Notes under the pieces: generated by a model
Databases searched by the model: none
What the model was told of the DNA's origin: nothing
The model's input: only the letters and a program-made list of their open reading frames with translations
Made by a program: the position numbers and the translations under genes
NCBI GenBank assembly: GCA_041641305.1
Contig: JBEPYN010000001.1
Location: 6,498-70,497, forward strand
DNA: 64,000 nt
Reading direction: 5' to 3'
DNA from: Nitrososphaerota archaeon
Lineage (GTDB): Archaea; Thermoproteota; Nitrososphaeria_A; Caldarchaeales; Caldarchaeaceae
Shown here: in pieces, positions 6,083 through 43,549 of the stretch
How the letters are laid out: each line of letters opens with the position of its first letter
How positions within the stretch are numbered: the stretch's first letter is position 1

Positions 6083-6911
6083 AGTGGGCTTTTTTCTCCC
6101 CAGGCTCGGTAGCTGTTCCCTTTCTCCGCATGCTTAGGAATGAGACCGCAGCTATCGTAGCCAACCCAGCGGCCAGCACAACCCAAATTCTGTCAAAGTA
6201 ACCCGAGGATGATGTTGAAGGCTCCTTGGCAACATCCACTCTATCACTCATTTCGAAGAATTGTCCTGCGCTGGGTGGAAGACCTGATAGGAAGGAGGCC
6301 TGAATAGCTGTCAATTCTGTTGGTGAGATGACTCTCGTTGTGTTGAATGCCGAGAGGTCTATGTTGCTTGTCTCAAGAGTGAGTTTAAGAGATGTTCTCT
6401 TCCCTCCTGGGCCTGTATGGATGAGGTCGAGGCTGTAAAGAACTTTTGAAGGTGTTATCGTTTCGATGACTCCTTCAAGCTTGGAATCATCCCCATCTCT
6501 CCCAACAGATGCTGTGACTCGATAAACCTCAGTAACATACTCAAACCCTGAAACGGTTCGACGCTCCTTACCAACCTTCTCTACAGAAAGTTCGAGGCTG
6601 AGGTTTCCTCTCCGATAACTGTAAACACCCTCGTAGGCCGCCAAATCCACAGAAGGAGGTGAGAAATAACTGCTTGGAAGGTTCTTCTCCAGAGTCGCCA
6701 CACCGTCGTTGAATGTTGCCTCGCTTCTTATACGCAGTCTTCCATCGGACAAAACATCTACAACAGAGACTGAGAATCCTCCGGAAACAGCTTCTCCACC
6801 ATCCGAGGTGAAAACATAACTGTATGAGAAGTAATCGCCCTGCTCAAACCCTTCCACCGTCGAGAGAAACATGATAGCGACCAGGGCTATCGTGAAAAGG
6901 ACTTTCATCAT
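6075..6911 (-). CDS. secreted/extracellular protein with N-terminal signal peptide and C-terminal TM anchor
   Basis: MMKVLFTIALVAIMFLSTVEG signal-like N-terminus; C-terminal IWVVLAAGLATIAAVSFLSMRRKG anchor. Its stop overlaps the start of the ABC ATPase gene (6075-6082). Confidence 0.55.
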   Translation of the reverse strand: MMKVLFTIALVAIMFLSTVEGFEQGDYFSYSYVFTSDGGEAVSGGFSVSVVDVLSDGRLRIRSEATFNDGVATLEKNLPSSYFSPPSVDLAAYEGVYSYRRGNLSLELSVEKVGKERRTVSGFEYVTEVYRVTASVGRDGDDSKLEGVIETITPSKVLYSLDLIHTGPGGKRTSLKLTLETSNIDLSAFNTTRVISPTELTAIQASFLSGLPPSAGQFFEMSDRVDVAKEPSTSSSGYFDRIWVVLAAGLATIAAVSFLSMRRKGTATEPGEKKAHYV

Positions 6912-6967: not shown

Positions 6968-8374
6968 ATGGCGAATGATTTGTCCGCGTTACGGGAGGAG
7001 TCGCGGCGTCTCGCGGTGGAGCTTGTTAAGATTTTGGCTGCACGAAGAGAAGTGGTGAACAAAATCGCCGACCTTAAGAAAGCATCGGGACAGCCATTAG
7101 TCGTGCCCAACGTTGAGGCCGAGGTTAGAAAAGCCATGCTCGAAGAAGCTGCTAAACACGGTTTATCAGTGGAGACGATCAACCGGATAGCGACGATCGT
7201 ATTCTCGGACGCTGTTGAGCAGCAGCAGGCAAAGCCGAAGCCGGCTCTCACGCATTTTGACATTTTGAGAAGAGCGGTCGAGCTTCAGAAGAATGGACGC
7301 GAGGTCCAGAGGCTTGAAGTCGGTGAACCAGATTTAGGCGCTCCGCCAGAGGTTAGAAACTCTACGGCAAACGCGGTCTTAGAGGGGTATGCGAGATACA
7401 TAGATTCACGTGGTCTCGCGGAGCTCCGTGCCGCTATTGTGAAGACCGTGTATGAGAGGTATGGCCTCGAGATTTCGCCGGAAAACGTTATCGTCACTCC
7501 AGGTGGGAGATTCTCCATCTACCTCGCTGCCAAAACTTTGCTGCGGGAAGGTGATGAGCTTCTCGTCATCGACCCGTCGTGGCCGATGTATAGACAGGTA
7601 GCACCATTTGTTGGAGCGAGGTCCATACATGTTAAGACAAGGTTGGAAGACGGCTGGACACCGTCACTGAACGAGATCGAGAAACACATAAGCCCGTCAA
7701 CCAAAGCAATCATCCTCAACTACCCCAACAACCCTACTGGAAAAATTCTCGACCGCATAACCTTCAACAAACTCGTAGAATTCGCCACAGAACACGGCAT
7801 CACCATCATAAGCGACGAGGTCTACGCAGACTATGTCCGAAACGGTCATGTCAGCATACTCGATAACGAGCTCGGTAAACAACATGTCCTGATACAATCC
7901 TTTTCAAAGAGCTACGGAATGACCGGCTACAGAATAGGATATGTGATAGCCGACAAAAACCTGATAGCTAAGATGGCGTCTATAATCGGGCTCATCATAA
8001 CATGCGTCCCCGAGTTTATTCAGATGGGGGCTTTGACAGCTCTTGCACTCAAAGATACTCCGAAACAGTATGCGGCGGTCATGATGAGGAGGATGGAGCT
8101 GGCGGTTAGAGAGCTTGAGAAAATAGGTGCAGAGTTTTACAGACCTGATGGAGGGATGTATGTCTTTCCACGGATAGGGAAACTTGGTGACGACGCGATG
8201 GCTACGGCTTTTGAACTGCTTGAGTCAAAAGGTGTCGCTGTGGCCCCCGGATCAATCTTTGGAGGATACGACGAATTTGTTAGAATATCGCTGGGAGCAT
8301 CTGATGAGTCCATAGCTAAGGGCATCAGGCTTCTAGGCGAGTTTATCACCGAGAAAGGTTCGAAACGTGGTTAA
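6968..8374 (+). CDS. bifunctional chorismate mutase (AroQ-type N-domain) / class-I PLP aminotransferase fusion
   Basis: N-terminal ~90 aa LSALREESRRLAVELVKILAARREVVNKIADLKKASGQPLVVPNVEAEV resembles an AroQ CM helix bundle. The remainder has NYPNNPTGKI and SFSKSYGMTGYRIGY (Lys-containing PLP motif) of Asp/aromatic aminotransferases. Confidence 0.7.
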   Translation: MANDLSALREESRRLAVELVKILAARREVVNKIADLKKASGQPLVVPNVEAEVRKAMLEEAAKHGLSVETINRIATIVFSDAVEQQQAKPKPALTHFDILRRAVELQKNGREVQRLEVGEPDLGAPPEVRNSTANAVLEGYARYIDSRGLAELRAAIVKTVYERYGLEISPENVIVTPGGRFSIYLAAKTLLREGDELLVIDPSWPMYRQVAPFVGARSIHVKTRLEDGWTPSLNEIEKHISPSTKAIILNYPNNPTGKILDRITFNKLVEFATEHGITIISDEVYADYVRNGHVSILDNELGKQHVLIQSFSKSYGMTGYRIGYVIADKNLIAKMASIIGLIITCVPEFIQMGALTALALKDTPKQYAAVMMRRMELAVRELEKIGAEFYRPDGGMYVFPRIGKLGDDAMATAFELLESKGVAVAPGSIFGGYDEFVRISLGASDESIAKGIRLLGEFITEKGSKRG

Positions 8375-9200
8375 GAAAAAGGCGCTTGTTCTTGGAGCAG
8401 GCCCCATGGGCCTCTGGATGGCCCGGCATCTCGCAAAGAGAGGTTATCATGTCACCGTATATGACAAGGACAGAAAAAAGCTGCGAAACCTGGAAGGCGG
8501 AAGAATTTCGGCAGCAAAAAACCTCACAGAAGCACTCAACAACAGCGCCTTAATCGTTCTAGCCATCGGTTCGTCAAACACGGTAGACCTTCTTCCACGA
8601 CTCATCTCAAAAACAGATGGGAAGACATTCCTCGATATTTCATCGGTCAAAACACCCATCGCCAAAGCTCTGGCAAGAAGCAAGATAAAGAATAATGTGG
8701 TCGCCCTTGTTCACCCACTATTTGGACCCGGCGCCAAGAAACTGAACGACAAATACGTTGTGTTAACCCCTTTTCGCAGACCGGCGGCAGAGTATCGTGT
8801 TTGTAGGGAGATTTTCCATCCTTGCACAATTCTCCGAATGAGTGTCACGAGGCATGACTGGGTGATGGCGTCTGCGATGGCTTTGCCAAGGCTTCTGATG
8901 CTGACCCTCCTCAACGGATGGAGAATGGAAAAGGTTAAGCCACTCACCGTCAGCCAAAGAGCCCTATTAGTTGCCGCTGCCCCAATACTTAGCGAAAGCC
9001 CCACACTTTTCAGAGAAATAATAGAAAAAAATCCCTATACTAGACAAACTCTTTCAAAAACAATCAAAACACTAAACCGCATGAGAAAAAACCCATCAAC
9101 GGCATCGTCAATCTTCAAGCGGTTTCGGAGAAGAATAGGCTTCGAAAGCTACTTCAAAATCTACAAACTTCTCGAGGATGCCGCGTCTAATTCAAGGTAG
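8367..9200 (+). CDS. tyrA: prephenate dehydrogenase
   Basis: MVKKKALVLGAGPMGLWMARHLAKRGYHVTVYDKD Rossmann N-terminus followed by a TyrA-like dimerisation region. GTG start overlaps the upstream stop. Confidence 0.65.
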   Translation: MVKKKALVLGAGPMGLWMARHLAKRGYHVTVYDKDRKKLRNLEGGRISAAKNLTEALNNSALIVLAIGSSNTVDLLPRLISKTDGKTFLDISSVKTPIAKALARSKIKNNVVALVHPLFGPGAKKLNDKYVVLTPFRRPAAEYRVCREIFHPCTILRMSVTRHDWVMASAMALPRLLMLTLLNGWRMEKVKPLTVSQRALLVAAAPILSESPTLFREIIEKNPYTRQTLSKTIKTLNRMRKNPSTASSIFKRFRRRIGFESYFKIYKLLEDAASNSR

Positions 9201-9795: not shown

Positions 9796-9878
9796 GCCGG
9801 GGTCCCCAAGCCAGGTATGGGGCTGGTCTGCTAAACCAGTGGCCTTTGGCCGCGCGGGTTCAAATCCCGCCCCCGGCG
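9796..9878 (+). tRNA. tRNA-Ser (anticodon GCT)
   Basis: Hand-folded: acceptor GCCGGGG/CCCCGGC, 3-bp D stem, anticodon stem CTGGT/ACCAG, loop CTGCTAA (GCT), long variable arm TGGCCTTTGGCCGC, T arm GCGGG-TTCAAAT-CCCGC, discriminator G. No intron, CCA not encoded. Confidence 0.85.
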
Positions 9879-9969: not shown

Positions 9970-10827
9970 TCAGGTTTTGCGACTTTTGACGAGGATTAGT
10001 GAGAGGATTACCAGTAGAGTTAGCAAAACGGATTGGGCTATCAGCATTATTAATGTGTATGTCTGCTCGGGTGTGGTAGGTTGTTGTGGACCTGGTGTTT
10101 GGGTAGTGTTGTCGGCTCTTTGTGGCGGGAGTTTCACTATGCATGCGGAGAAGACCTTTATGTAGTTTCCAGAGGTGTCGACGTTTTCGGGGCTTAGTTT
10201 CTTCGAGCTGATGACTAGGTAAAAGTTCTCGCCCGTAACTTTTGGATAGCCGTAGGTGAGGACATTTACGTCGTTCACAAAGAATCTTATGATGGTTTCG
10301 TCATCTACCTCTGAATAAACCGCCTTGAGGGTGTAGGTCTTCTCTATTCCGAGAGGTATGTCATCAAGCGGGAATTCTCTGAAAAACTCAGGTATCCTCG
10401 GCGACTGGATGTAACCATTTATCGTGGACGATTTTTGCCGTATCACGAATCCAAACTCATCTCCTGTGAAGACTTTCGTGTCGTCGGTGACGAATACGGC
10501 GAACTCATCCCTATCACTTGGCGAACGATTCTCCATGTATATGCTTATCCGCGTCGAGAGGGCGAATGTTCTGCTAGCCTCGATGGATGTGATGGCTAAC
10601 GCGTCTTGGTAAACGTTTGTGGCGCGGCTTCCCGTGAACAGGTAGTGGTCGCCGTTGTAGACCGGTTGTGGGCCCATGGTGTTGTACCATTTGAAGTTTC
10701 TGTCGTAGGCTGTTGCTAGGTCTAGACATAATTCTCTGGGCTGGTCTTCTCTATGGGCTACGGCGGTGGAGGAGATGAGTAGGAGGGCGAGTAACATGGG
10801 TAGCAGTTGAACCTGTTTTAGCTTCAT
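9970..10827 (-). CDS. secreted protein with signal peptide, Thr/Pro-rich linker and C-terminal TM anchor (candidate synthase partner subunit)
   Basis: MKLKQVQLLPMLLALLLISSTAVA signal; ...TTQTPGPQQPTTPEQTYT linker; LIMLIAQSVLLTLLVILSLILVKSRKT anchor. 5 nt downstream of the GT2 gene. Confidence 0.55.
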   Translation of the reverse strand: MKLKQVQLLPMLLALLLISSTAVAHREDQPRELCLDLATAYDRNFKWYNTMGPQPVYNGDHYLFTGSRATNVYQDALAITSIEASRTFALSTRISIYMENRSPSDRDEFAVFVTDDTKVFTGDEFGFVIRQKSSTINGYIQSPRIPEFFREFPLDDIPLGIEKTYTLKAVYSEVDDETIIRFFVNDVNVLTYGYPKVTGENFYLVISSKKLSPENVDTSGNYIKVFSACIVKLPPQRADNTTQTPGPQQPTTPEQTYTLIMLIAQSVLLTLLVILSLILVKSRKT

Positions 10828-10831
10828 GTTC

Positions 10832-12562
10832 TCAGTCGTCCTTCTTTATGACCTCAAAACCTTTCGGAGGGTTTATGAGAGCATACCATGGTGCGCAGGC
10901 CTCAAGCATCATTCCGCCGATAACGGCGAATATTATTCTGTACCTTCTACGGTGTCCTCTTTTTTCGGGACCTGTGAGATAAGCATCATTCAACTTGTAG
11001 CCGCCTGCGTGGTAGCGGTATAGCGAGTACCATGTGAATCCTGCTATGATTCCTGAGGCGGGGAAAAGCCCTCCTGTAGGGTAGATTATGCTTACAGCGA
11101 ACGCTATCAGGGATGGTAGTGCCGACATCCAGCTGACCACGCCGTATAGTGCTGCGAGCCTGTACCTCAGCCTGATTCTCTTGTCAAACACTATCTGCAT
11201 GGCTCCGTGGGCCCATCGTCTTCTCTGTTTTAGGAGGTCTTTGGTCGTGAGAGGGGGTTTCTCGTAGCCGTATCCTTTTAGAATCGTCTTTCCAGGCCTA
11301 TACCGCTGCCACATCATTAAGCCGAACATCCAATCCTCTGTCTTAACATCTCCGAAGTCCCATCCAACGGCGGCTTCGACGTCTGCTCTCACGAGTAGAT
11401 GTGAACCGTGGTGTCCAAACGATAGTTTACCGTTTGTCTTGGTTGTGAGTAGTATTCGGAAGTCGTCGTAGCTACGGGAGGGTTCCTGGGCCCTTGAAGG
11501 GGTGTAGGTCAGGGAGTCGGCGTAGTTTATTATGCCGGCGGCGTAGATGTCGTGGTCGCCCGCGTTGATGATGTAGTCCATTATCCCCAGTATCGTGTCT
11601 TCACCAACTTTTGTTTCATCATCCTGATGATATATCCATGTGTCTTTGTTTACGAGACCTTCCTCAGCCATGACTTTATTGGCGTAGACAAGTGCTCTCG
11701 CCTTGTACCTTGTCCCGTTAACTGTGTTGAACTCGCGTGGGACAATTATTACTCTCGCGCCTATGGAGGCCAACTCACTGTAGCCTTTCACGTTCGCTTC
11801 ATAATCATCTTGTTCGCAGATGATCCATTGGGAAATATCCACCATTTTTCCATGTTTCAGTTCGATGATTTCTTTCCAGAAATTTGCGGATTCTACTGAC
11901 ATTTTTACGGTGACGTTGTTCCCGCCTTTGGTCGGTAAAATGAAGATGACGTGTTTATTCTTCAATTGCGCAGCGTTTTTCGTGATGTTTTGCTCATTTA
12001 TGAGAAAATCATCTTTGCCGAATGAGAGGTATCCGATGTTTTGGAGTATTAAATGCGGGGTGCCGATCAGCCAGCTATACTTTAGGCTGTGTGCCACAAA
12101 CTCTATTCCTGTTGTGACGGCTGGGGCGCCGGAGAACAAGGTGCCCATTAGGAAAGAGAAGCCGACCAGGTCAACTACATGTTGCCGTTTCTCGTCAAAA
12201 ACCGTATCGATTGATTGGTTGAAATTATCGACCGTGTATCGTAGGTAGGCCGGGTTGCTCAGTTCCTCGTGTAGGGGCCTGTGGTGGTTGAGGCTGTTGT
12301 CCATGTTTCTGTTGTTTGCAACTACTAAAACTGCTGCGATGGATGATAGTGAGAGGTCCATCAGCAGGATTACCGACGACGGGGAAGACCTCTGCATATT
12401 CTCGTAAGCCCATTGGAAGACGGAGTTGGAGTAGAGGGCCCATGGTCTCAGGTTGGCCAGTTCATAATTGGGTATTAGTGCTGGGAAAAGGATTGAGAGC
12501 ACGATTACGGCTAAGACCCAGAAGAATAGCCGGGAAAAAGTCCTGAACAGGGTTAGCTGCAT
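10832..12562 (-). CDS. processive family-2 glycosyltransferase (cellulose/chitin-synthase-like, multi-TM)
   Basis: 576 aa with N- and C-terminal TM helices. Motifs IFILPTKGG...QDDETKV (DxD), TEDW (TED), KQRRRWAHG (QxxRW). Confidence 0.75.
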   Translation of the reverse strand: MQLTLFRTFSRLFFWVLAVIVLSILFPALIPNYELANLRPWALYSNSVFQWAYENMQRSSPSSVILLMDLSLSSIAAVLVVANNRNMDNSLNHHRPLHEELSNPAYLRYTVDNFNQSIDTVFDEKRQHVVDLVGFSFLMGTLFSGAPAVTTGIEFVAHSLKYSWLIGTPHLILQNIGYLSFGKDDFLINEQNITKNAAQLKNKHVIFILPTKGGNNVTVKMSVESANFWKEIIELKHGKMVDISQWIICEQDDYEANVKGYSELASIGARVIIVPREFNTVNGTRYKARALVYANKVMAEEGLVNKDTWIYHQDDETKVGEDTILGIMDYIINAGDHDIYAAGIINYADSLTYTPSRAQEPSRSYDDFRILLTTKTNGKLSFGHHGSHLLVRADVEAAVGWDFGDVKTEDWMFGLMMWQRYRPGKTILKGYGYEKPPLTTKDLLKQRRRWAHGAMQIVFDKRIRLRYRLAALYGVVSWMSALPSLIAFAVSIIYPTGGLFPASGIIAGFTWYSLYRYHAGGYKLNDAYLTGPEKRGHRRRYRIIFAVIGGMMLEACAPWYALINPPKGFEVIKKDD

Positions 12563-12716
12563 GTTTTCACATCCAATTCACGTGCAAACTATCGCCGCGT
12601 GGTATAATAGGGTTTTATTGATGTAGCATGATGGATGTTGGGCTGAAGATATTTAGAAGGTTTTAGACGTTTGGCGGGCTGGCGGATGTGCCGAGATTGG
12701 CGTCTGTCTGGAGAGC

Positions 12717-13685
12717 CTATTGCTTCCACCATATTTCAGTTAATCGTTTTTTGATTAAGAGAGGCTTTAGGTATTGGATGGTTTTCTCCAGTCCATCCTC
12801 TTGGCTCATCACTGGGTCTTCGTGCTCATAGCTCATGACGTAGTCATAGCCAACTTCCGCGAACGCTGTAATGACTCTTTTCCATGGAACCTGTCCCCAT
12901 CCCGGTATCCTGAACCTGAAGCCTCTATCGGGCCGTAGCCAGCTCCCCGTGGGAATGGCCCCTGATGTAGACAAGTTTTCGGCCACAAGCTCCCCATCCT
13001 TCGCATGAGAGTGGAAAATTCTCTCTCCGAATTTTTTGATGAAGACAACTGGGTCAATAAGCTGCCAAACTAAATGGCTTGGGTCAAAGTTGAAACCAAA
13101 CTCTTTCTTCCAATTAATTGCCTTAAGCGCTTGCTCCGCTGTTTCCACATTATAGGCCAGTTCTTGTGGATGCACTTCATGAGCGAACTTTACGCCGCAG
13201 CTGCTATAATAGTCCAGTATCCCGCCCCATCGTTCAGCGAACAGTTCAAAATAGGATTCAAAAATCTTGTCATAACCAAACGGAAAGTTGTACCATGCAC
13301 CCCAGTTGGGGCATCCGATAAAACCTACTACAACAGGCACATCAAGTAGGCTGGCCACGTCGCATGTCTTTTTCATTCTATCGATGCCATACTTCACCTT
13401 CTCTTCATGGCTTCCCATATAGACGCCATCCGTCGACGCATCATGAGGCCCTAACACCAACTGGCCCTCCAGATGATTCGATATAGCCGAAATAAGCAGA
13501 CCGTTGTTTTCTACCACTCGCTTAATTTCCTGAGCTCCTCCGCCCAACGCTTTATCAATGTCTAAATGCCGGCTACCACGCCAGCACGCAATCTCAACAG
13601 CCTCGTAACCAAGAGAAGAAATCTGGGCTGCAACTTTTTCTAATGGAACTTCGTTGTACAGTACCGTGAAAACCCCTAACTTCAT
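12717..13685 (-). CDS. sugar phosphate isomerase/epimerase (xylose-isomerase-like TIM barrel)
   Basis: 322 aa, MKLGVFTVLYNEVPLEKVAAQISSLGYEAVEI..., typical of the AP endonuclease 2 / xylose isomerase-like fold. TATA ttttaaaatatata ~30 nt upstream on the minus strand. Confidence 0.6.
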   Translation of the reverse strand: MKLGVFTVLYNEVPLEKVAAQISSLGYEAVEIACWRGSRHLDIDKALGGGAQEIKRVVENNGLLISAISNHLEGQLVLGPHDASTDGVYMGSHEEKVKYGIDRMKKTCDVASLLDVPVVVGFIGCPNWGAWYNFPFGYDKIFESYFELFAERWGGILDYYSSCGVKFAHEVHPQELAYNVETAEQALKAINWKKEFGFNFDPSHLVWQLIDPVVFIKKFGERIFHSHAKDGELVAENLSTSGAIPTGSWLRPDRGFRFRIPGWGQVPWKRVITAFAEVGYDYVMSYEHEDPVMSQEDGLEKTIQYLKPLLIKKRLTEIWWKQ

Positions 13686-13794: not shown

Positions 13795-13869
13795 CGGGCC
13801 CGGTGGGACTTGAACCCACGACCTACGGCTCCGAAGGCCGCCGCGCTGTCCATTCTGCGCCACGGGCCC
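13795..13869 (-). tRNA. tRNA-Arg (anticodon TCG)
   Basis: Hand-folded reverse complement: acceptor GGGCCCG/CGGGCCC, D stem GCGC, anticodon stem GCGGC/GCCGT (one G-U), loop CTTCGGA (TCG), T arm GTGGG-TTCAAGT-CCCAC, discriminator G. Confidence 0.8.
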
Positions 13870-30788: not shown

Positions 30789-31639
30789 AGCCCCGAAGAC
30801 GACCAGCGGTAGCCGGATACTTCTACGAGGGCTCCAGAGAAGCTCTTCTGAGACAGGTGGAAAACTGTTTCCTATCATCACACGGCCCGGGAAAAACACC
30901 TACAAAAGAGTGGAGCACCCGTCGTCCACCTGCTCTCATCTCTCCACATGCGGGTCTGATGTACTCGGGGCCTGTCGCGGCCCACGGATACTATGAGCTG
31001 ACAAAATATGCGGCGCCTGAGTCTGTTGTTGTTTTCGGGCCCAACCACTACGGAGTGGGGACAGTTGTTTCAATATACCCGGGAGGAAGCTGGTTGACCC
31101 CTCTCGGAGAGGTCAAAATAGATGATAAGCTCGCGGCGGAGATCGCTGGACAGCGTGAGTTTTTCTACTTGGATGAAATAAGCCATGCACGTGAACACAG
31201 CATCGAGGTACAGTTGCCTTTCCTCCAGTACCTGTATGGCGAATTCCTGTTTGTACCAATCTGTATTAATGACCAAAGCCTCGAGACTTGTGTGGAGATT
31301 GGGGAGGCTGTTGCAGAAGTTGTCGATAGAAGAAACATTCTCATGATTGCGTCTACCGATTTCACGCATTATGAGCCGCATGAAACGGTGTTGAAAAAGG
31401 ACAGGCTCGCTCTTGAGCGTATACAGCAGCTTGACGTCGAAGGCCTTTACAAGGTGATTGAGAAGTATGACATAACTATGTGTGGGTACGGAGCTGTGGC
31501 GGCGTTGTTGGTTGCCGCAAGAAAGCTCGGGGCAGTCGAGGCCACGGTCTTGAAACAGGCTACAAGCGGCGATACAAGCGGGGATTACGAGTCTGTGGTC
31601 GGCTACGCGGCCTGTAAAATTGAGCTGCCTGAAAAATGA
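30785..31639 (+). CDS. Memo-like (AmmeMemoRadiSam system protein B family) protein
   Basis: PAVAGYFYEGS...ISPHAGLMYSGPVAAHGY...IASTDFTHY: Memo1-family signature. 4-nt overlap with both neighbours. Confidence 0.75.
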   Translation: MKPRRRPAVAGYFYEGSREALLRQVENCFLSSHGPGKTPTKEWSTRRPPALISPHAGLMYSGPVAAHGYYELTKYAAPESVVVFGPNHYGVGTVVSIYPGGSWLTPLGEVKIDDKLAAEIAGQREFFYLDEISHAREHSIEVQLPFLQYLYGEFLFVPICINDQSLETCVEIGEAVAEVVDRRNILMIASTDFTHYEPHETVLKKDRLALERIQQLDVEGLYKVIEKYDITMCGYGAVAALLVAARKLGAVEATVLKQATSGDTSGDYESVVGYAACKIELPEK

Positions 31640-32595
31640 GGAAGCAGGTCAAAGTATTCGCACCGGGTAAAGTCATACTTTATGGAGAACACTTTGTCGT
31701 CTCAGGCTACCCAGCCATCGTAACAGCAATAGACCGTGGCGTAACTGTCACAGCGAGAAAAGTAGAGGACAAGTTTGTCATAGTTTCAAAACATTCAGCC
31801 GCGGCGTGGGATATTTCCGGAGAGCCCATTGCCGCCAGCTCACATACCCTTGCCCCGCTCTACAACATGGTTAGAGAGATATGTTTGGACAATGGTGTGC
31901 CGTGCACAGGGTTGGCTGAGATAGAGTCAGACCTAGTTAGCGGCGGAGGACTCGGCTCCTCTGCAGCTGTCTCCGTCGCGCTTGCTAAGGCCGTGTCGCT
32001 TCTGCATGAAATCGAGCTAAGCCGAGACCAGCTTATACAGTATGCTCTCAAGGCTGAGAAAGAGTTCCACGGCAGACCGTCTGGAATAGACCCGACAATA
32101 TCCGCGGTAGGCGGAACCATTGCCTACCAAGGCCTTGGAAAATACACAGGCATTGAGATAGGTGAACCCCTAGACCTAATAATAGTCTTCAGCGGCAGAA
32201 AAAGGAAAACATCTAAGATGGTCGATATTGTGCAGAGGTTTGCTGCTGAGAAGAGAAATGTTTTCACGGAGCTTGTGAAACTTTATTCATATATATACGA
32301 GGAGGCGAAAAAGTCCTTGGCTCAAGGAGACCTTGAGACCATCGGCCAACTTTTCACACTCAACCATCTTCTTCTAAAGACAGTCGGTGTCTCGGCAGAG
32401 GTTCTGGAGAACATAGTGGATAGGTTGAGGAGCTTATGTGTCTACGGGTCTAAGCTGACGGGAGCGGGTGGCGGCGGTTGCGTAATCGCAGTAGCGGGTG
32501 AAAGAACCGCGGATATTGTAGAAGAGATGTCAAGGCTTTATCCAGGGGCTTGGTTAAGCAGGATAGGGGTAGCCGGAGTAGGTGAAAAGGTTTGA
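31636..32595 (+). CDS. mvk: mevalonate kinase
   Basis: GHMP kinase: VFAPGKVILYGEHFVV (motif 1), GGGLGSSAAV (motif 2), KLTGAGGGGCVIA (motif 3). Confidence 0.85.
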   Translation: MRKQVKVFAPGKVILYGEHFVVSGYPAIVTAIDRGVTVTARKVEDKFVIVSKHSAAAWDISGEPIAASSHTLAPLYNMVREICLDNGVPCTGLAEIESDLVSGGGLGSSAAVSVALAKAVSLLHEIELSRDQLIQYALKAEKEFHGRPSGIDPTISAVGGTIAYQGLGKYTGIEIGEPLDLIIVFSGRKRKTSKMVDIVQRFAAEKRNVFTELVKLYSYIYEEAKKSLAQGDLETIGQLFTLNHLLLKTVGVSAEVLENIVDRLRSLCVYGSKLTGAGGGGCVIAVAGERTADIVEEMSRLYPGAWLSRIGVAGVGEKV

Positions 32596-33374
32596 GCAAC
32601 CTTGTAATCCTCAAGATAGGTGGCTCAGTCATCACAGACAAAACGAGAGAAAACTTCTTCAGACAAGAAGTTATGGCGAGAATAGCGAAGGAGATTGCGA
32701 GATGCTGGCCCACGCCTATGATAATAATACATGGAGCAGGCTCTTTCGGACACCCCATCGCCAAACAGTACAGAATTGACGAGGGTTATAGGGAGCAGGG
32801 GCAGTTGGAGGGGTTTGTGAAAACCCTTCAATCGGTTAAGACCCTAAACCAGCATGTCGTCAATACACTCATCGAAACTGGTATAGGAGCTGTTGGCATG
32901 CCTGCGTCTACACTTTTCATCACGCGGAAAGGCGTCATAGAAACCGCTCATCTTGACATGTTCTTCTCGGCCCTCGACCTGGGAGTAATACCGGTCACAT
33001 GCGGTGATGCAGTTTTTGACCGAGAGCTAAAGTTCACAGTAGCCTCGGGGGATCAGATAGCCATCCACCTCGCAAAATCTCTGAGAGCCTCGCGGATAGT
33101 TTTCGCCAGCGACGTTGACGGTGTTTATGAGGTTGACAGGGAGACGGGTGAGAAGAAGGTGCTTGAGAAGCTTGATTATAGGAGACATTCAACCCTCTAC
33201 TATGGAGGTGTTGAAGGCGAGGATGTTACAGGAGGGATGTTCTACAAGGTTGAAATGGGGTTTGAGGCTGTGAAAGCTGGTGTAGACGTTGTGATAGTCA
33301 ACGGCCTCGTCGAAGGCAGGATAGAAGCCGCTGTGAAGGGAAAGCCTGTGAAAGGGACAACGCTGGTGATGTAG
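32592..33374 (+). CDS. ipk: isopentenyl phosphate kinase
   Basis: Amino-acid-kinase fold. LVILKIGGSVITDK...IIHGAGSFGH. Located between mvk and fni as in archaeal MVA clusters. Confidence 0.8.
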   Translation: MSNLVILKIGGSVITDKTRENFFRQEVMARIAKEIARCWPTPMIIIHGAGSFGHPIAKQYRIDEGYREQGQLEGFVKTLQSVKTLNQHVVNTLIETGIGAVGMPASTLFITRKGVIETAHLDMFFSALDLGVIPVTCGDAVFDRELKFTVASGDQIAIHLAKSLRASRIVFASDVDGVYEVDRETGEKKVLEKLDYRRHSTLYYGGVEGEDVTGGMFYKVEMGFEAVKAGVDVVIVNGLVEGRIEAAVKGKPVKGTTLVM

Positions 33375-33375
33375 C

Positions 33376-34452
33376 GTGAGCATAGAGGCGAGGAAAAGCG
33401 ATCACATCAAGATAAGTCTCGAAAAAGACGTTTCCTTCAAAAAATCAACATGGCTCGAATACGTGGAGCTTGTACATCAAGCCGCTCCGGAGATAGATCC
33501 CGGAGATATCCAAACCGAAACCATTTTCCTTGGCCGCAGGTTCAGCCACCCACTGATAATAGAGTCGATGACGGGGGGCACATCTGAAGCGGAGAAGATA
33601 AACGCCAACCTCGGGCAGGCAGCCGCGGTTTTCAAGGTGCCCATGGGCGTAGGCAGTCAGAGAGCGGGAATAGTCAAGCCTGAGACAGTTCGCACATTCA
33701 GGGCTGCGCGTGACCATGGTCCAGACGCTTTTCTCATCGGCAACATAGGGGCGGTGCAGCTGGTGGAAAACGGTGTGGAGATGGGTTTAAAGGCGGTTGA
33801 GATGATAGACGCCGACGCCCTCGCCGTCCACCTCAACCCTCTCCAAGAAATCATACAGCCAGACGGAAAAGCACGGTTCAGAAACCTCTCAAAAACACTT
33901 GAGAAGCTGCGGAAAGAGTTGAGCATACCAATTATTTTGAAGGAGATTGGATGCGGGTTGTCGAGGGAGGTTGTGGCGATGGCTGATAGAGTAGGTTTAG
34001 ATGCTTTTGACGTGGCCGGCTCAGGGGGAACAAACTGGACGATGATAGAGATGATACGTGCAGAGGAAATGAAAGACAGCGAGAAAAGGGCGCTTGCAGA
34101 GGTTTTCCTCGAATGGGGCATCCCGACAGCGGCCGCCGTCATGGAGGCTGTTGACACAACAACCAAGCCTGTGATAGCCTCCGGAGGGTTAAGGACAGGA
34201 CTCGATGCAGCAAAAACCCTGGCCCTCGGAGCATCCATGGCTGGTCTGGCGAGACCATTCCTCAAACCGGCCACCAATTCTGCCGAGGACGTACTGGCGA
34301 CGCTAAGTAGATTGTCTAACCAGCTGAAGACAACGATGTTCTTAACAGGATGTAAGACAGTAGATGAGCTACGAAATGCACCCAAAGTGGTTATGGGGCC
34401 ACTGCGTGAATGGGCTGCACAGAGGCTCAGTCGTGGCAGTAGACAAACCTGA
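33376..34452 (+). CDS. fni: isopentenyl-diphosphate delta-isomerase type 2 (FMN-dependent)
   Basis: RKSDHIKI...ESMTGGT...GVGSQRA...ASGGLRTGLD: IDI-2 conserved blocks. Confidence 0.85.
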   Translation: MSIEARKSDHIKISLEKDVSFKKSTWLEYVELVHQAAPEIDPGDIQTETIFLGRRFSHPLIIESMTGGTSEAEKINANLGQAAAVFKVPMGVGSQRAGIVKPETVRTFRAARDHGPDAFLIGNIGAVQLVENGVEMGLKAVEMIDADALAVHLNPLQEIIQPDGKARFRNLSKTLEKLRKELSIPIILKEIGCGLSREVVAMADRVGLDAFDVAGSGGTNWTMIEMIRAEEMKDSEKRALAEVFLEWGIPTAAAVMEAVDTTTKPVIASGGLRTGLDAAKTLALGASMAGLARPFLKPATNSAEDVLATLSRLSNQLKTTMFLTGCKTVDELRNAPKVVMGPLREWAAQRLSRGSRQT

Positions 34453-41302: not shown

Positions 41303-43549
41303 CTACCTCGCCCACAGGGGGTTCTTCACACGCATTATCTCCACAAGCTCCTCCAAAGTTTTGAGGGCATGAGGCTCCAGCATAGCGGCATAGTTTGTGA
41401 GCAGCTGGCGGGCGTCGCGTTCGGGGACAGCGACATAGAGCTCCTCGTCGCCGTGAATAGTTCGGCCGACCACAGCGTCTCGGATGGAGACGGCCACCTT
41501 CATTCCAGCTTTGGCGAGGCTTATCGCCTGTCCTCTATCCTGTATCTGTGAGAGCTGCCCCACGGTCTTGCCCAATTTATTGACCAGCTGCACACCCGGA
41601 CGAATTTCGCCAGCCAAAACCTCCACACCCACTATAGCAGGCTCACTACGTCTGAAAATGAAGTCCTTCAGTATCTTTATCTTGCCAGGCTTCACAAGCG
41701 ACTCAAACTCAGCCGCTTGCCTGGCTCTAACGGTTTCGGCGACCCAGCTCTCATATTCTTCTACAAGGCGGAAAAGGACATCGTTTTTGAAGATGCGGAC
41801 ACCCTTCGAAAGAGCTTCACGCTCCAGCTCTGGGTCAACTCGCACCCCGTAAGCCAAGATTACGCCTAGGAGCTCATCCTTCAAGTGGACGACATGGGCT
41901 TCGACTATGTCGCGTTTGGAGACATCCCCGATGTCAGCCATTCGTATTAACACACCTTTGTCACGAAGATAGTTGACCGCTGCTTCCAGTGTTCCAAGTG
42001 CATCGGCCTTGACCACAACCCCTATTTTGTCTGTCGAGAGAATAAACTCCTGAGCCTCCTCCGCAACACGCCTAAGATCCTCTACCTCGTTTTTCACAAC
42101 CAGTAGAGGTGATCCGGCTACGGCGTCCTCAAGCATTTCGGCAACCATTTTGACGCCAGCAGCCGCCGAAATCTGGTCGATGCTCTTCAGCCTATCACGT
42201 GGGTCGCGTATCTCGTCAAGTGGTTTGGGCAACAGAAGCGCCTTGACTTTCGACGTTGTAGGGCCTCGGCGTGTGAGAAAAGCAACCTTTTCGCCAACCC
42301 TTAATGTTCCTGTGTGAATAAGAATGTTAGCTGTGGCGCCGAAGCCCTCTTCCTCTACAATCTCGAGGATGACACCTTCACATCTGTCCTCCCTTTTCAT
42401 TAGACGCTGCTTCATAAACTGCTGAGCAAGTCCGAGGAGAAGCAAGAGGAGGTCGGGTATGCCTTCGCCTGTCTTAGCGCTGACGGGAATGATGGCTACG
42501 GTGTCTGTGAACGACTTTATCCTAGTGTAGAGGTCTGACCTGAAGCCGAGGAAACTGAGGTCCCCCATCAGGTTATAAATCCTGTTGTCGAGGTCTTCGG
42601 CGACGGCTTTCTGCTGGTTGTTGTATGTTTTTATGAATGGGGCGTTGGGCGTAGGCCGCCATCCGGGTATCATGTCTATTTTGTTGGCGGCTACCACGAA
42701 GGGTGTTTTCCTAGAGCGAAGAAGCTGGATGCTTTCCCTTGTCTGTTCTTGGACACCTTTCATGATGTCGATGACGAGGATGGCCATGTCGGCGACGGAG
42801 CCTCCCCGTTTCCTGAGGTTGGAGAAGGCCGCGTGCCCCGGTGTGTCGATGAAGAGGATGCCGGGAATTTCCAGCTTGACTTTGAGCTCTCCCAGTAGCT
42901 GTCGACATGTCTCCTCTATTGCCTTTATGGGGAAGATCGTTGCCCCGATGTGCTGTGTTATGCCACCGGCCTCCCTGGCGGCGACGAGGGTTCCCCGCAT
43001 CTTATCAAGAAGGGAGGTGTTGTGGAGAATGATTTCTTGTGCTTCGTAGAAGTGTGTCGGGGGCACTGTGAAGTCGTAGACGTAGCGGTAGCTGGGCTTG
43101 GTTTTTTCGATGGCTTCTACAGTTACGAATGTGACTTGTTTTCCTCGCAGGCTTAGCAGCCTGTCTCCCGGCTTTAGCCTATCAGCTCTTACGAAGACAT
43201 GTAGAAAGTTGTTCACAGCCTTTGCGTAGGGATGCTCGGGTGTTGTTTCGACGGTTTCTCCGTTGGAGAGATATATTCGGGTCATGGTTTTTGGTGCACG
43301 TCTTCTCCAGAGCAGCATAGCCTCGGCCTCGCGATTATCTGTCAGGGTCACGAGGGTTGGTTTCTTCTGCGGCTCCACAGCCACCCCATCGGAAACATGG
43401 TAGACTTTTCCACCTCTGGCGTATGTTCTGAACATATCCTCGGCGGAGACATAACCTTCCCCAGTTTCGTGTATGAGTGTCCATGGGGCAACGCATTTTC
43501 CATGGTCCACATGGCCCAGAACAACCACTATCGGCTCCCTGTAGCGCAT
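41303..43549 (-). CDS. infB: translation initiation factor aIF-5B, interrupted in the P-loop by an in-frame mini-intein
   Basis: MRYREPIVVVLGHVDHGK|C...intein...HN|TSLLDKMRGT...; downstream G domain, domain II, and C-terminal beta-barrel typical of aIF5B. 748 aa precursor. Confidence 0.9.
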   Translation of the reverse strand: MRYREPIVVVLGHVDHGKCVAPWTLIHETGEGYVSAEDMFRTYARGGKVYHVSDGVAVEPQKKPTLVTLTDNREAEAMLLWRRRAPKTMTRIYLSNGETVETTPEHPYAKAVNNFLHVFVRADRLKPGDRLLSLRGKQVTFVTVEAIEKTKPSYRYVYDFTVPPTHFYEAQEIILHNTSLLDKMRGTLVAAREAGGITQHIGATIFPIKAIEETCRQLLGELKVKLEIPGILFIDTPGHAAFSNLRKRGGSVADMAILVIDIMKGVQEQTRESIQLLRSRKTPFVVAANKIDMIPGWRPTPNAPFIKTYNNQQKAVAEDLDNRIYNLMGDLSFLGFRSDLYTRIKSFTDTVAIIPVSAKTGEGIPDLLLLLLGLAQQFMKQRLMKREDRCEGVILEIVEEEGFGATANILIHTGTLRVGEKVAFLTRRGPTTSKVKALLLPKPLDEIRDPRDRLKSIDQISAAAGVKMVAEMLEDAVAGSPLLVVKNEVEDLRRVAEEAQEFILSTDKIGVVVKADALGTLEAAVNYLRDKGVLIRMADIGDVSKRDIVEAHVVHLKDELLGVILAYGVRVDPELEREALSKGVRIFKNDVLFRLVEEYESWVAETVRARQAAEFESLVKPGKIKILKDFIFRRSEPAIVGVEVLAGEIRPGVQLVNKLGKTVGQLSQIQDRGQAISLAKAGMKVAVSIRDAVVGRTIHGDEELYVAVPERDARQLLTNYAAMLEPHALKTLEELVEIMRVKNPLWAR
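43019..43495 (-). mobile_element. mini-intein (159 aa, no homing-endonuclease domain) in aIF-5B P-loop
   Basis: Starts with Cys immediately after GHVDHGK and ends ...EIILHN followed by Thr (+1). Block B TxxH present (TTPEHPY). The flanking extein residues reconstitute the canonical GHVDHGKT-SLLDKMRGT junction. Confidence 0.8.

Follow-up and report, generated by a model that had tools for sequence, protein, structure and literature searches.

The two genes considered here lie on the minus strand of a stretch of 64,000 nucleotides (hereafter, the window), taken from positions 6,498 to 70,497 of contig JBEPYN010000001.1 in the Nitrososphaerota assembly GCA_041641305.1: the first gene (10832..12562, 576 aa) encodes a membrane-integrated family-2 glycosyltransferase (GT2) with a cellulose-synthase-like core (PF13632), and the second gene, which we refer to as the "partner" (9970..10827, 285 aa), encodes a secreted, concanavalin-A (ConA)-like protein with a C-terminal membrane anchor. 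An earlier reading of the nucleotide sequence (the original prediction) had described these two open reading frames (ORFs) as a co-transcribed pair resembling the cellulose synthase BcsA and its companion BcsB, and both ORFs are borne out at these positions and lengths. Here, we have compared the two proteins and their loci across genomes and against known structures, and we have found that the GT2 and its lectin-fold partner form a genuine functional unit, confined to one branch of the GT2 family.

The window belongs to a hot-spring archaeon, a close relative of Ca. Caldarchaeum subterraneum (Nitrososphaerota, order Caldarchaeales): the closest of the 23 homologues of the partner (95% identity) is CSUB_C0403 of that organism, and the closest of the 102 homologues of the GT2 (97% identity) is the product of the adjacent gene. 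Both are real, conserved genes. All of the features of the pair that are described below are located on the minus strand of the window. The spacer between the stop codon of the GT2 gene and the ATG of the partner gene (10828..10831) consists of 4 nt, gaac, and not of five, as had been stated, with the junction reading GAC GAC TGA gaac ATG; because of this short gap, and because the corresponding stop and start codons overlap in relatives, the two genes are almost certainly co-transcribed, in agreement with the original prediction. The presumed promoter of the two-gene unit is the A/T-rich intergenic region of 154 nt that precedes the GT2 gene (12563..12716), where a TATA-like A/T-rich element, aataaaaccctattata, is found approximately 45 nt before the GT2 ATG.

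The glycosyltransferase and its membrane core

The GT2 is a member of the membrane-embedded GT2s of the cellulose-synthase fold, i.e. it is a new and notably minimal member of a known superfamily; this placement follows from its Pfam match, the register of its motifs and its structural matches. The Pfam match is to PF13632 (E 6.6e-15, above the gathering score), accompanied by weak additional matches to Cellulose_synt and MdoH (OpgH)/CelA. The comparison of the GT2 family profile with the sequences of the Protein Data Bank (PDB) has retrieved cellulose synthases only, with HGS, ED and QRRRW of the family located opposite FFCGS, TED and QxxRW; the sequence similarity between the GT2 and BcsA is marginal (E ~1e-3), and a local hhalign comparison with E. 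coli BcsA has reproduced the same register (HGS/TED/QRRRW on FCGS/TED/QRIRW), ending before the gating loop and, as the BcsA alignments did in general, short of the DxD region. The AlphaFold2 (AF2) model of the GT2 has a predicted local distance difference test (pLDDT) score of 88, with low confidence in residues 1-100; in a Foldseek search of solved structures, its best matches over 530-630 aligned columns are to BcsA (E 9e-11 to 6e-8, with moderate TM-scores of ~0.45), followed by CesA, the mannosyltransferase PcManGT, viral and vertebrate hyaluronan synthases (HAS), cyclic-glucan synthase (Cgs) and chitin synthases (Chs).

The conservation of individual residues has been read from an alignment of 67 GT2 homologues, where K287, R289, D314, H385, G386, D402, D410, Q446-R-R-R-W450 and K574 are invariant. 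The cytoplasmic GT-A catalytic domain (aa 204-433, 11264..11953) is delimited by its alternating strands and helices, modelled at pLDDT >90, and by its invariant residues. According to the original prediction, the GT2 carries the full motif set of processive synthases, and this holds for two of the motifs: Q446-R-R-R-W450 (11213..11227), the QxxRW motif, is located in an interface helix that spans residues 440-459 and has QRGRW, QRIRW and QVLRW as its aligned counterparts in BcsA and CesA, and T408-E409-D410 (11333..11341), with which the "finger" helix begins, is the catalytic-base motif and falls on the TED of the same enzymes. The wording of the motifs has to be revised, though: T408 is not conserved and E409 is kept by 90% or more of the aligned sequences, so the conserved core of the TED is "ED", while the "DxD" is really D-D-E (D314-D315-E316, 11615..11623), with D314 being invariant and E316 conserved in at least 90% of the sequences. 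This DxD-type metal/nucleotide-sugar motif sits after the beta strand where PF13632 begins, is by its position the putative equivalent of the DxD, and is followed by a family-specific VGED (aa 319-322). Overall, the description of the enzyme as a cellulose-synthase-like GT2 is upheld, since its motif matches persist in the alignment and in the predicted structure.

The N-terminal membrane region (aa 8-82, 12317..12541) consists of two clearly hydrophobic helices (residues 8-30 and 61-82) that are separated by an amphipathic one; its conservation and the confidence of its model are both low, and the alignment with distant homologues starts only at about residue 100-200. The C-terminal helices that follow QRRRW (465-493, 503-526 and 537-563; 10874..11170) carry the conserved aromatic and polar residues W478, SALPS, G508, Y518 and G521; helix 465-493 is strongly hydrophobic, and the other two are less so. 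The transmembrane (TM) helix bundles that had been described on both sides of the catalytic domain were therefore an overstatement: there are two helices at the N-terminus, and one strong and two weaker helices after QRRRW. From their order and spacing, helices 440-459, 465-493, 503-526 and 537-563 probably correspond to IF2, TM5, TM6 and IF3 of BcsA, respectively.

At the C-terminus, two residues before the end of the chain, we have found a motif that is absent from the original prediction, F569-E-V-I-K-K574 (10841..10858), whose family consensus, F[ED]V[IV]xK, is present in nearly all of the GT2 homologues and resembles the FxVTxK of the gating loop of BcsA, with the Thr being replaced by Ile or Val. 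FEVIKK is located 123 aa after QRRRW; in E. coli BcsA, FNVTAK617 follows QRIRW493 at a distance of 124 aa. On the grounds of motif and spacing, rather than of structural superposition, FEVIKK is the putative equivalent of the gating loop. The chain ends at residue 576, just past this motif, and neither Pfam nor the model reveals a PilZ or other regulatory C-terminal domain, whose possible presence the original prediction had raised. Since it has no TM7/8, no PilZ domain and only two poorly conserved N-terminal helices, the GT2 represents a minimal core of the cellulose-synthase type.

In nine Thermoplasmata loci (L024, L025, L028, L030, L032, L035, L043, L045 and L048, as numbered in the genome scan described below), the GT2 match begins at the equivalent of residue 200, where the gene directly upstream ends; the product of this gene (~325 aa) has a low-complexity/coiled-coil N-terminus and two C-terminal membrane helices and looks like a split-off N-terminal membrane module, with the ORF calls in these GC-rich genomes being uncertain.

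The tethered partner protein

The sequence, the hydrophobicity and the AF2 model agree on the signal peptide, the Thr/Pro-rich stalk and the C-terminal anchor that had been recognized in the partner. The Sec-type signal peptide (aa 1-24, 10756..10827) shows the n-h-c organization, with MKLK, a hydrophobic core and a putative AVA|H cleavage site, and is modelled as a helix at residues 3-22. It is followed by an extracellular beta-sandwich (aa 31-232, 10132..10737) of the concanavalin-A/L-type-lectin fold, modelled at pLDDT >90, by a disordered linker rich in Thr, Pro and Gln (aa 233-255, 10063..10131; pLDDT <50 for residues 239-252), and by the C-terminal membrane anchor (aa 256-280), which together with the basic tail KSRKT and the stop codon occupies 9970..10062 and is supported by its hydrophobicity and by a modelled helix at residues 253-284.

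The fold of the ectodomain is a familiar one, with 614 Foldseek matches at E <= 1e-3: the best match is Emp47p (2.5e-9), followed by VIP36, ERGIC-53 and legume lectins, while O-glycanases of glycoside hydrolase family 16 (GH16) and kappa-carrageenase are found at lower ranks. At the level of sequence, the partner has no Pfam match at E <= 1 and its profile has no match among the PDB sequences at E <= 10; the partner thus falls outside the described families Lectin_leg-like, Laminin_G_3 and DUF1080/3-keto-disaccharide hydrolase, and the UniRef name "DUF1080" could not be reproduced. A comparison of profiles with hhalign has given a probability of 0.3% for E. coli BcsB, and equally of 0.3% for the Laminin_G_3 protein that is encoded beside the partner homologues of DPANN archaea. 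The family itself is tiny, with 23 clusters in 5.8 billion proteins and 34 representatives (E <= 1e-3) among 1.84 billion; the partner is thus a new, very narrow sequence family with a known, lectin fold.

Within this family, the mean pairwise identity is 66% in the ectodomain, 28% in the linker, 22% in the anchor and 22-28% in the signal peptide. The ectodomain contains two invariant cysteines, C34 and C229. Most of the residues that do not vary between the versions of Caldarchaeales and those of Aenigmatarchaeota have aromatic, acidic or amide side chains; they include E108, E124 and an acidic loop, D115-D116...D123-E124, which may be a sugar- or metal-binding site. The DPANN versions of the partner carry a cytoplasmic coiled-coil tail of 55-75 aa.

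Linkage of the two genes across genomes

Our search for the pair in other genomes has been conducted from both sides. A scan of one genome per species, seeded by an alignment of 37 sequences, has revealed 62 loci of the GT2 family: the partner is located directly downstream, on the same strand, in the Caldarchaeales/Wolframiiraptor loci L001-L008 and L018, and it is adjacent and convergent in the Aenigmatarchaeota loci L055 and L059; it is absent from L009 and L010, two close relatives where remnants next to the GT2 were looked for and none were found, and from ~49 other loci from Bathyarchaeia, Thermoplasmata, Sulfolobales, Desulfurococcales, Thermococcus, Methanothermococcus and other DPANN. 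The partner adjoins the GT2 in nine of the 11 loci of the Caldarchaeales clade, and it is the most recurrent neighbour across the whole GT2 family. When the search starts from the partner, the GT2 adjoins it on every contig with enough flanking sequence, with the partner being downstream on the same strand in L064, L067/68 and L072-74, and convergent in the DPANN-like L065/66 and L069/70; on the 1.9-kb contig L071, which carries a distant partner homologue, the convergent neighbour is not this GT2, and the contig is too short for its other side to be judged.

The other genes that flank the pair differ from lineage to lineage; general synteny was considered as the cause of the linkage and rejected, as none of the other flanking genes of the window recur near the pair in other lineages. 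In a neighbour-joining (NJ) tree, the GT2s that are linked to a partner in Caldarchaeales and those linked to one in Aenigmatarchaeota form sister groups. It is because the linkage persists despite the changing flanks, and because of these sister clades, that we regard the pair as a genuine unit restricted to one branch, and the lack of linkage that the original prediction had named as evidence against a pair is not what the genomes show. The partner is a clade-specific accessory and not a general obligatory subunit.

Several of these loci show peculiarities of their own. The partner gene of Wolframiiraptor sinensis is interrupted by a frameshift (L018, 7724-8420), and the GT2 of the partner-less L010 is split into two ORFs (412-2179); the metagenome-assembled genome of L010 is labelled "WOR-3 bacterium", but its locus is Caldarchaeales-like, and the contig is probably mis-binned. 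In a Caldarchaeales relative (L067, 724-3147), the pair directly follows genes for a DegT-type sugar aminotransferase and an NTP_transf_4 protein, all in one orientation, which may hint at an amino sugar as the donor. In DPANN-like loci (L069/L070, 566-7458; L065, 5055-8330), a Laminin_G_3 (ConA-like) protein is encoded before the partner homologue, and L069/70 additionally have genes for a type-IV-pilus ATPase and for two platform proteins (T2SSE, 2x T2SSF) ahead of it, while in a Nanoarchaeota locus (L039, 3432-3959), the gene that is convergent with the GT2 starts like an archaeal pilin. In the Bathyarchaeial loci L011-L014 (e.g. L012, 3185-7873), a B12-binding radical SAM enzyme, a polytopic membrane protein of 412 aa with weak PMT_2/GT-C similarity (E 0.003) and the GT2 are encoded in a co-directional row, with a convergent gene for a DUF420 membrane protein after the GT2; a DPM-type GT2 is also encoded nearby in L014.

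In the window itself, the gene directly upstream of the GT2 encodes a xylose-isomerase-like TIM-barrel protein (AP_endonuc_2; 12717-13685 (-)). A different, non-orthologous AP_endonuc_2 member is encoded directly after the partner in the Wolframiiraptor loci (L001, 4816-5622 (-)), and the occurrence of such genes near the pair in both lineages may be a coincidence or a sugar-related link. A tRNA-Ser(GCT) gene (9796-9878 (+)) lies 91 nt past the stop codon of the partner and is convergent with it, and a tRNA-Arg(TCG) gene (13795-13869 (-)) lies between the H+-pyrophosphatase (H+-PPase) gene and the TIM-barrel gene, so that the TIM-barrel, GT2 and partner genes are bounded by two tRNA genes. In Ca. 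Caldarchaeum subterraneum (L072, 7164-12740), the row of H+-PPase, TIM-barrel, GT2 and partner genes is followed by phage-type integrase and Prim-Pol genes; the window is without these genes at that place and has a nitroreductase gene instead, which suggests that Ca. Caldarchaeum subterraneum carries an integrated element at the tRNA-Ser.

The remaining window is ordinary archaeal chromosome, with genes for aEF1-alpha, eIF2-gamma, GluRS, aIF5B/IF-2 with an intein (41303-43549 (-)), and a mevalonate group where mevalonate kinase, isopentenyl-phosphate kinase and a type-2 IDI-like FMN enzyme occur in a row (31636-34452 (+)). An aromatic amino-acid cluster is also present (6968-9200 (+)), in which a gene for a fused chorismate mutase-aminotransferase (468 aa) extends into the beginning of a prephenate-dehydrogenase-like gene.

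Possible functions and comparison with known systems

We consider it established that a cytoplasm-facing, inverting GT2 with acceptor and gating elements of the cellulose-synthase type is co-expressed with a surface-tethered lectin-fold protein. The reading that we favour, tentatively and at a little under an even chance, is that this two-gene module makes a beta-linked oligo- or polysaccharide and exports the chain, which the tethered lectin-fold domain binds and retains. The GT2 would act as an inverting family-2 enzyme, with its cytoplasmic GT-A domain fused to a minimal membrane core of the cellulose-synthase type (two N-terminal helices, the QRRRW interface helix, two membrane helices, an IF3-like helix and the terminal FxVxxK): it would take a nucleotide sugar in the cytoplasm and extend, with beta-linked sugars, an acceptor that the tryptophan of QRRRW holds at the membrane interface, and the growing chain would be passed outward through, or along, the conserved C-terminal helices. 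The partner, translated from the same transcript, would be exported by Sec, tethered by its C-terminal helix and its flexible Thr/Pro linker, and would bind the emerging glycan with its lectin-fold domain, retaining or organizing it at the cell surface; such a role would parallel that of the carbohydrate-binding domains of BcsB, without any relationship to BcsB. The genes themselves, their fold, motifs and topology elements, the operon junction and the conserved linkage are borne out by the analysis; the processivity, the export path, the donor sugar, the product, the glycan binding by the partner and any physical contact between the two proteins are the parts of this proposal that we infer.

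A number of observations weigh against the production and retention of a polymer. No sugar-nucleotide or other glycan genes adjoin the pair in the window, and about 49 of the 62 GT2 loci, together with the close relatives L009 and L010, are without the partner. The anchor and the linker of the partner are poorly conserved and the GT2 has revealed no partner-specific feature, for which reasons a tight complex of the BcsA-BcsB type is not indicated. The GT2 has only 4-5 hydrophobic helices, without equivalents of TM7/8 (the closed channel for the polymer in BcsA has six helices). Several homologues, at 33-65% identity (P0002, P0021, P0023, P0034, P0035, P0037 and P0046), are named "egghead" or "beta-1,4-mannosyltransferase" by the Joint Genome Institute (JGI), and Egghead adds one mannose to a glycolipid, turning glucosylceramide (GlcCer) into its mannosylated form, MacCer (PMC6202054); single transfers to lipophilic acceptors are, moreover, known from enzymes that derive from the cellulose-synthase superfamily (PMC7669905). 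The Bathyarchaeial row with its GT-C-like protein and B12-radical SAM enzyme fits lipid-linked glycan chemistry. Given the 4-5 helices, the missing TM7/8 and PilZ and the JGI names, the synthesis of a polymer by the GT2, and thus its processivity, is unproven.

The main alternative, somewhat less likely than the favoured reading, is that the GT2 is an Egghead-like, non-processive or oligo-processive enzyme, which places one or a few beta-linked sugars onto a membrane-lipid acceptor that enters sideways from the bilayer, e.g. the head group of a glycosyl-archaeol or of a glycerol dialkyl glycerol tetraether (GDGT), or a polyprenyl-phosphate-linked glycan, with the partner recognizing or using this head group on the outer face. 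Beyond the names and the low number of membrane helices, this alternative draws on the compact architecture that is common to the GT2 family and its eukaryotic (chytrid) homologues, on the strong structural match to PcManGT, a non-polymerising archaeal GT2 (E 8.5e-7, TM-score 0.58-0.60 of the target), and on the Bathyarchaeial homologues that are co-directional with the GT-C-like membrane protein and near a DPM-type GT2. Its likeness to Egghead, however, rests solely on the names given by the source; the top structural matches of the GT2, membrane part included, are polymer synthases; extracellular carbohydrate-binding partners encoded beside the synthase are typical of polymer systems, and we know of no glycolipid transferase with such a partner encoded next to it; and a glycolipid made at the inner face would still need to be flipped.

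An obligate complex of the BcsA/BcsB type, where the helix of the partner packs on the synthase and is needed for catalysis while the ectodomain serves as the exit conduit of the polymer, would account for the gene order and tight coupling, as in bcsA-bcsB, for the C-terminal anchor that the partner has in common with BcsB, and for the strict adjacency wherever the partner occurs, and an added helix could complete the channel of a GT2 that is without TM7/8. We consider such a complex unlikely, because the anchor is not conserved (22% identity within the family, compared with 66% in the ectodomain), because 20-25 disordered residues separate the domain from the membrane, and because most members of the GT2 family, many of them active-looking and including the intact close relative L009, are without a partner; the domain architecture of the partner also differs from that of BcsB, to which it has no homology, and the DPANN versions carry a different, coiled-coil cytoplasmic tail. 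Less probable still is an enzymatic partner, i.e. a GH16-like glycanase or transglycosylase of the ConA fold, by which the product of the GT2 would be trimmed or cross-linked, in the manner of BcsZ or of the fungal Crh enzymes: GH16 O-glycanases and kappa-carrageenase do occur among the fold matches, and E108, E124 and several Asp are invariant, but the best matches are to L-type lectins without enzymatic activity, an ExDxxE-type motif is absent, E108 and E124 start the two strands of one hairpin in the model and should therefore sit at its opposite ends, and the acidic loop appears more like the metal/sugar loop of a lectin.

As a wider proposal, possible but on balance doubtful, the pair may represent a new archaeal system of synthase-dependent glycan secretion: a regulator-free core that ends at the gating loop and is without TM7/8, next to which a membrane-tethered partner of a new lectin-fold family takes the place of BcsB and either completes the exit path or captures the chain. 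Such a system would be common to Caldarchaeales and DPANN, would lie beside pilus/adhesin-like genes in DPANN, and would be the first pair of synthase and extracellular partner to be defined in archaea. A search of the literature for systems in archaea that resemble Egghead or cellulose synthase, and for the gene pair itself, has returned nothing relevant, nor was a synthase-type GT2 with an extracellular partner found to have been characterized in archaea in the literature searched; as far as these searches show, the combination of a GT2 of the synthase type and a tethered protein of lectin fold is undescribed. The making and export of surface or matrix polysaccharides by archaea is poorly known, and the pair offers a very small, self-contained candidate of two genes and no regulator; as a possible minimal cellulose-synthase core, the GT2 bears on how few helices suffice for coupled synthesis and export, and if it proves to be a glycolipid transferase, it would point towards the enzymes, as yet unidentified, by which the membrane lipids of archaea are glycosylated. 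The pair is a good small target for biochemistry, without being surprising in principle.

Among the known systems, the closest to the GT2 are BcsA (4HG6, 5EJ1, 9B8V) and CesA: as in these enzymes, a GT-A domain is embedded in the membrane via interface helices, the FFCGS-like, (T)ED and QxxRW motifs are in register, and an FxVxxK occurs at the position of the gating loop, with BcsA being the best structural match. Unlike BcsA, the GT2 is without the cyclic-di-GMP-binding PilZ domain and ends two residues past the gating-loop motif, so that TM7/8 are absent, and it has only two, poorly conserved N-terminal helices and a D-D-E in place of the DxD. The BcsA/BcsB-like character that had been proposed for the pair holds for its topology and gene order, and possibly for its function, but not for sequence or architecture: like BcsB, the partner is encoded directly after the synthase, is exported, and combines beta structure of a carbohydrate-binding type with a single C-terminal membrane helix, but it is a protein of 285 aa, compared with 779 aa, without sequence homology to BcsB, and has a single ConA-like sandwich of ~200 aa, compared with two carbohydrate-binding and two flavodoxin-like domains, as well as a flexible Thr/Pro linker and a poorly conserved anchor.

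Egghead, the Drosophila beta-1,4-mannosyltransferase that acts on glucosylceramide, has a compact multi-pass architecture and belongs to the same PF13632-class type of membrane GT2, and several homologues bear its name at JGI; unlike the GT2 described here, Egghead is eukaryotic, located in the Golgi, adds a single mannose and is without a lectin partner. PcManGT, the mannosyltransferase of Pyrobaculum calidifontis (6YV7), is likewise an archaeal GT2; its membrane fold is minimal and cellulose-synthase-like and gives a strong match, but it is much shorter (~350 aa), comes from another sequence family and has no lectin-like partner next to it. Lastly, the partner has the beta-sandwich fold of the L-type lectins (Emp46p/Emp47p, VIP36, ERGIC-53 and the legume lectins), with an acidic loop at a comparable place, and the L-type lectin cargo receptors are, as is the partner, type-I membrane proteins with a C-terminal anchor; unlike these lectins, the partner is archaeal, has no detectable sequence similarity to them, and is linked to a glycosyltransferase gene.

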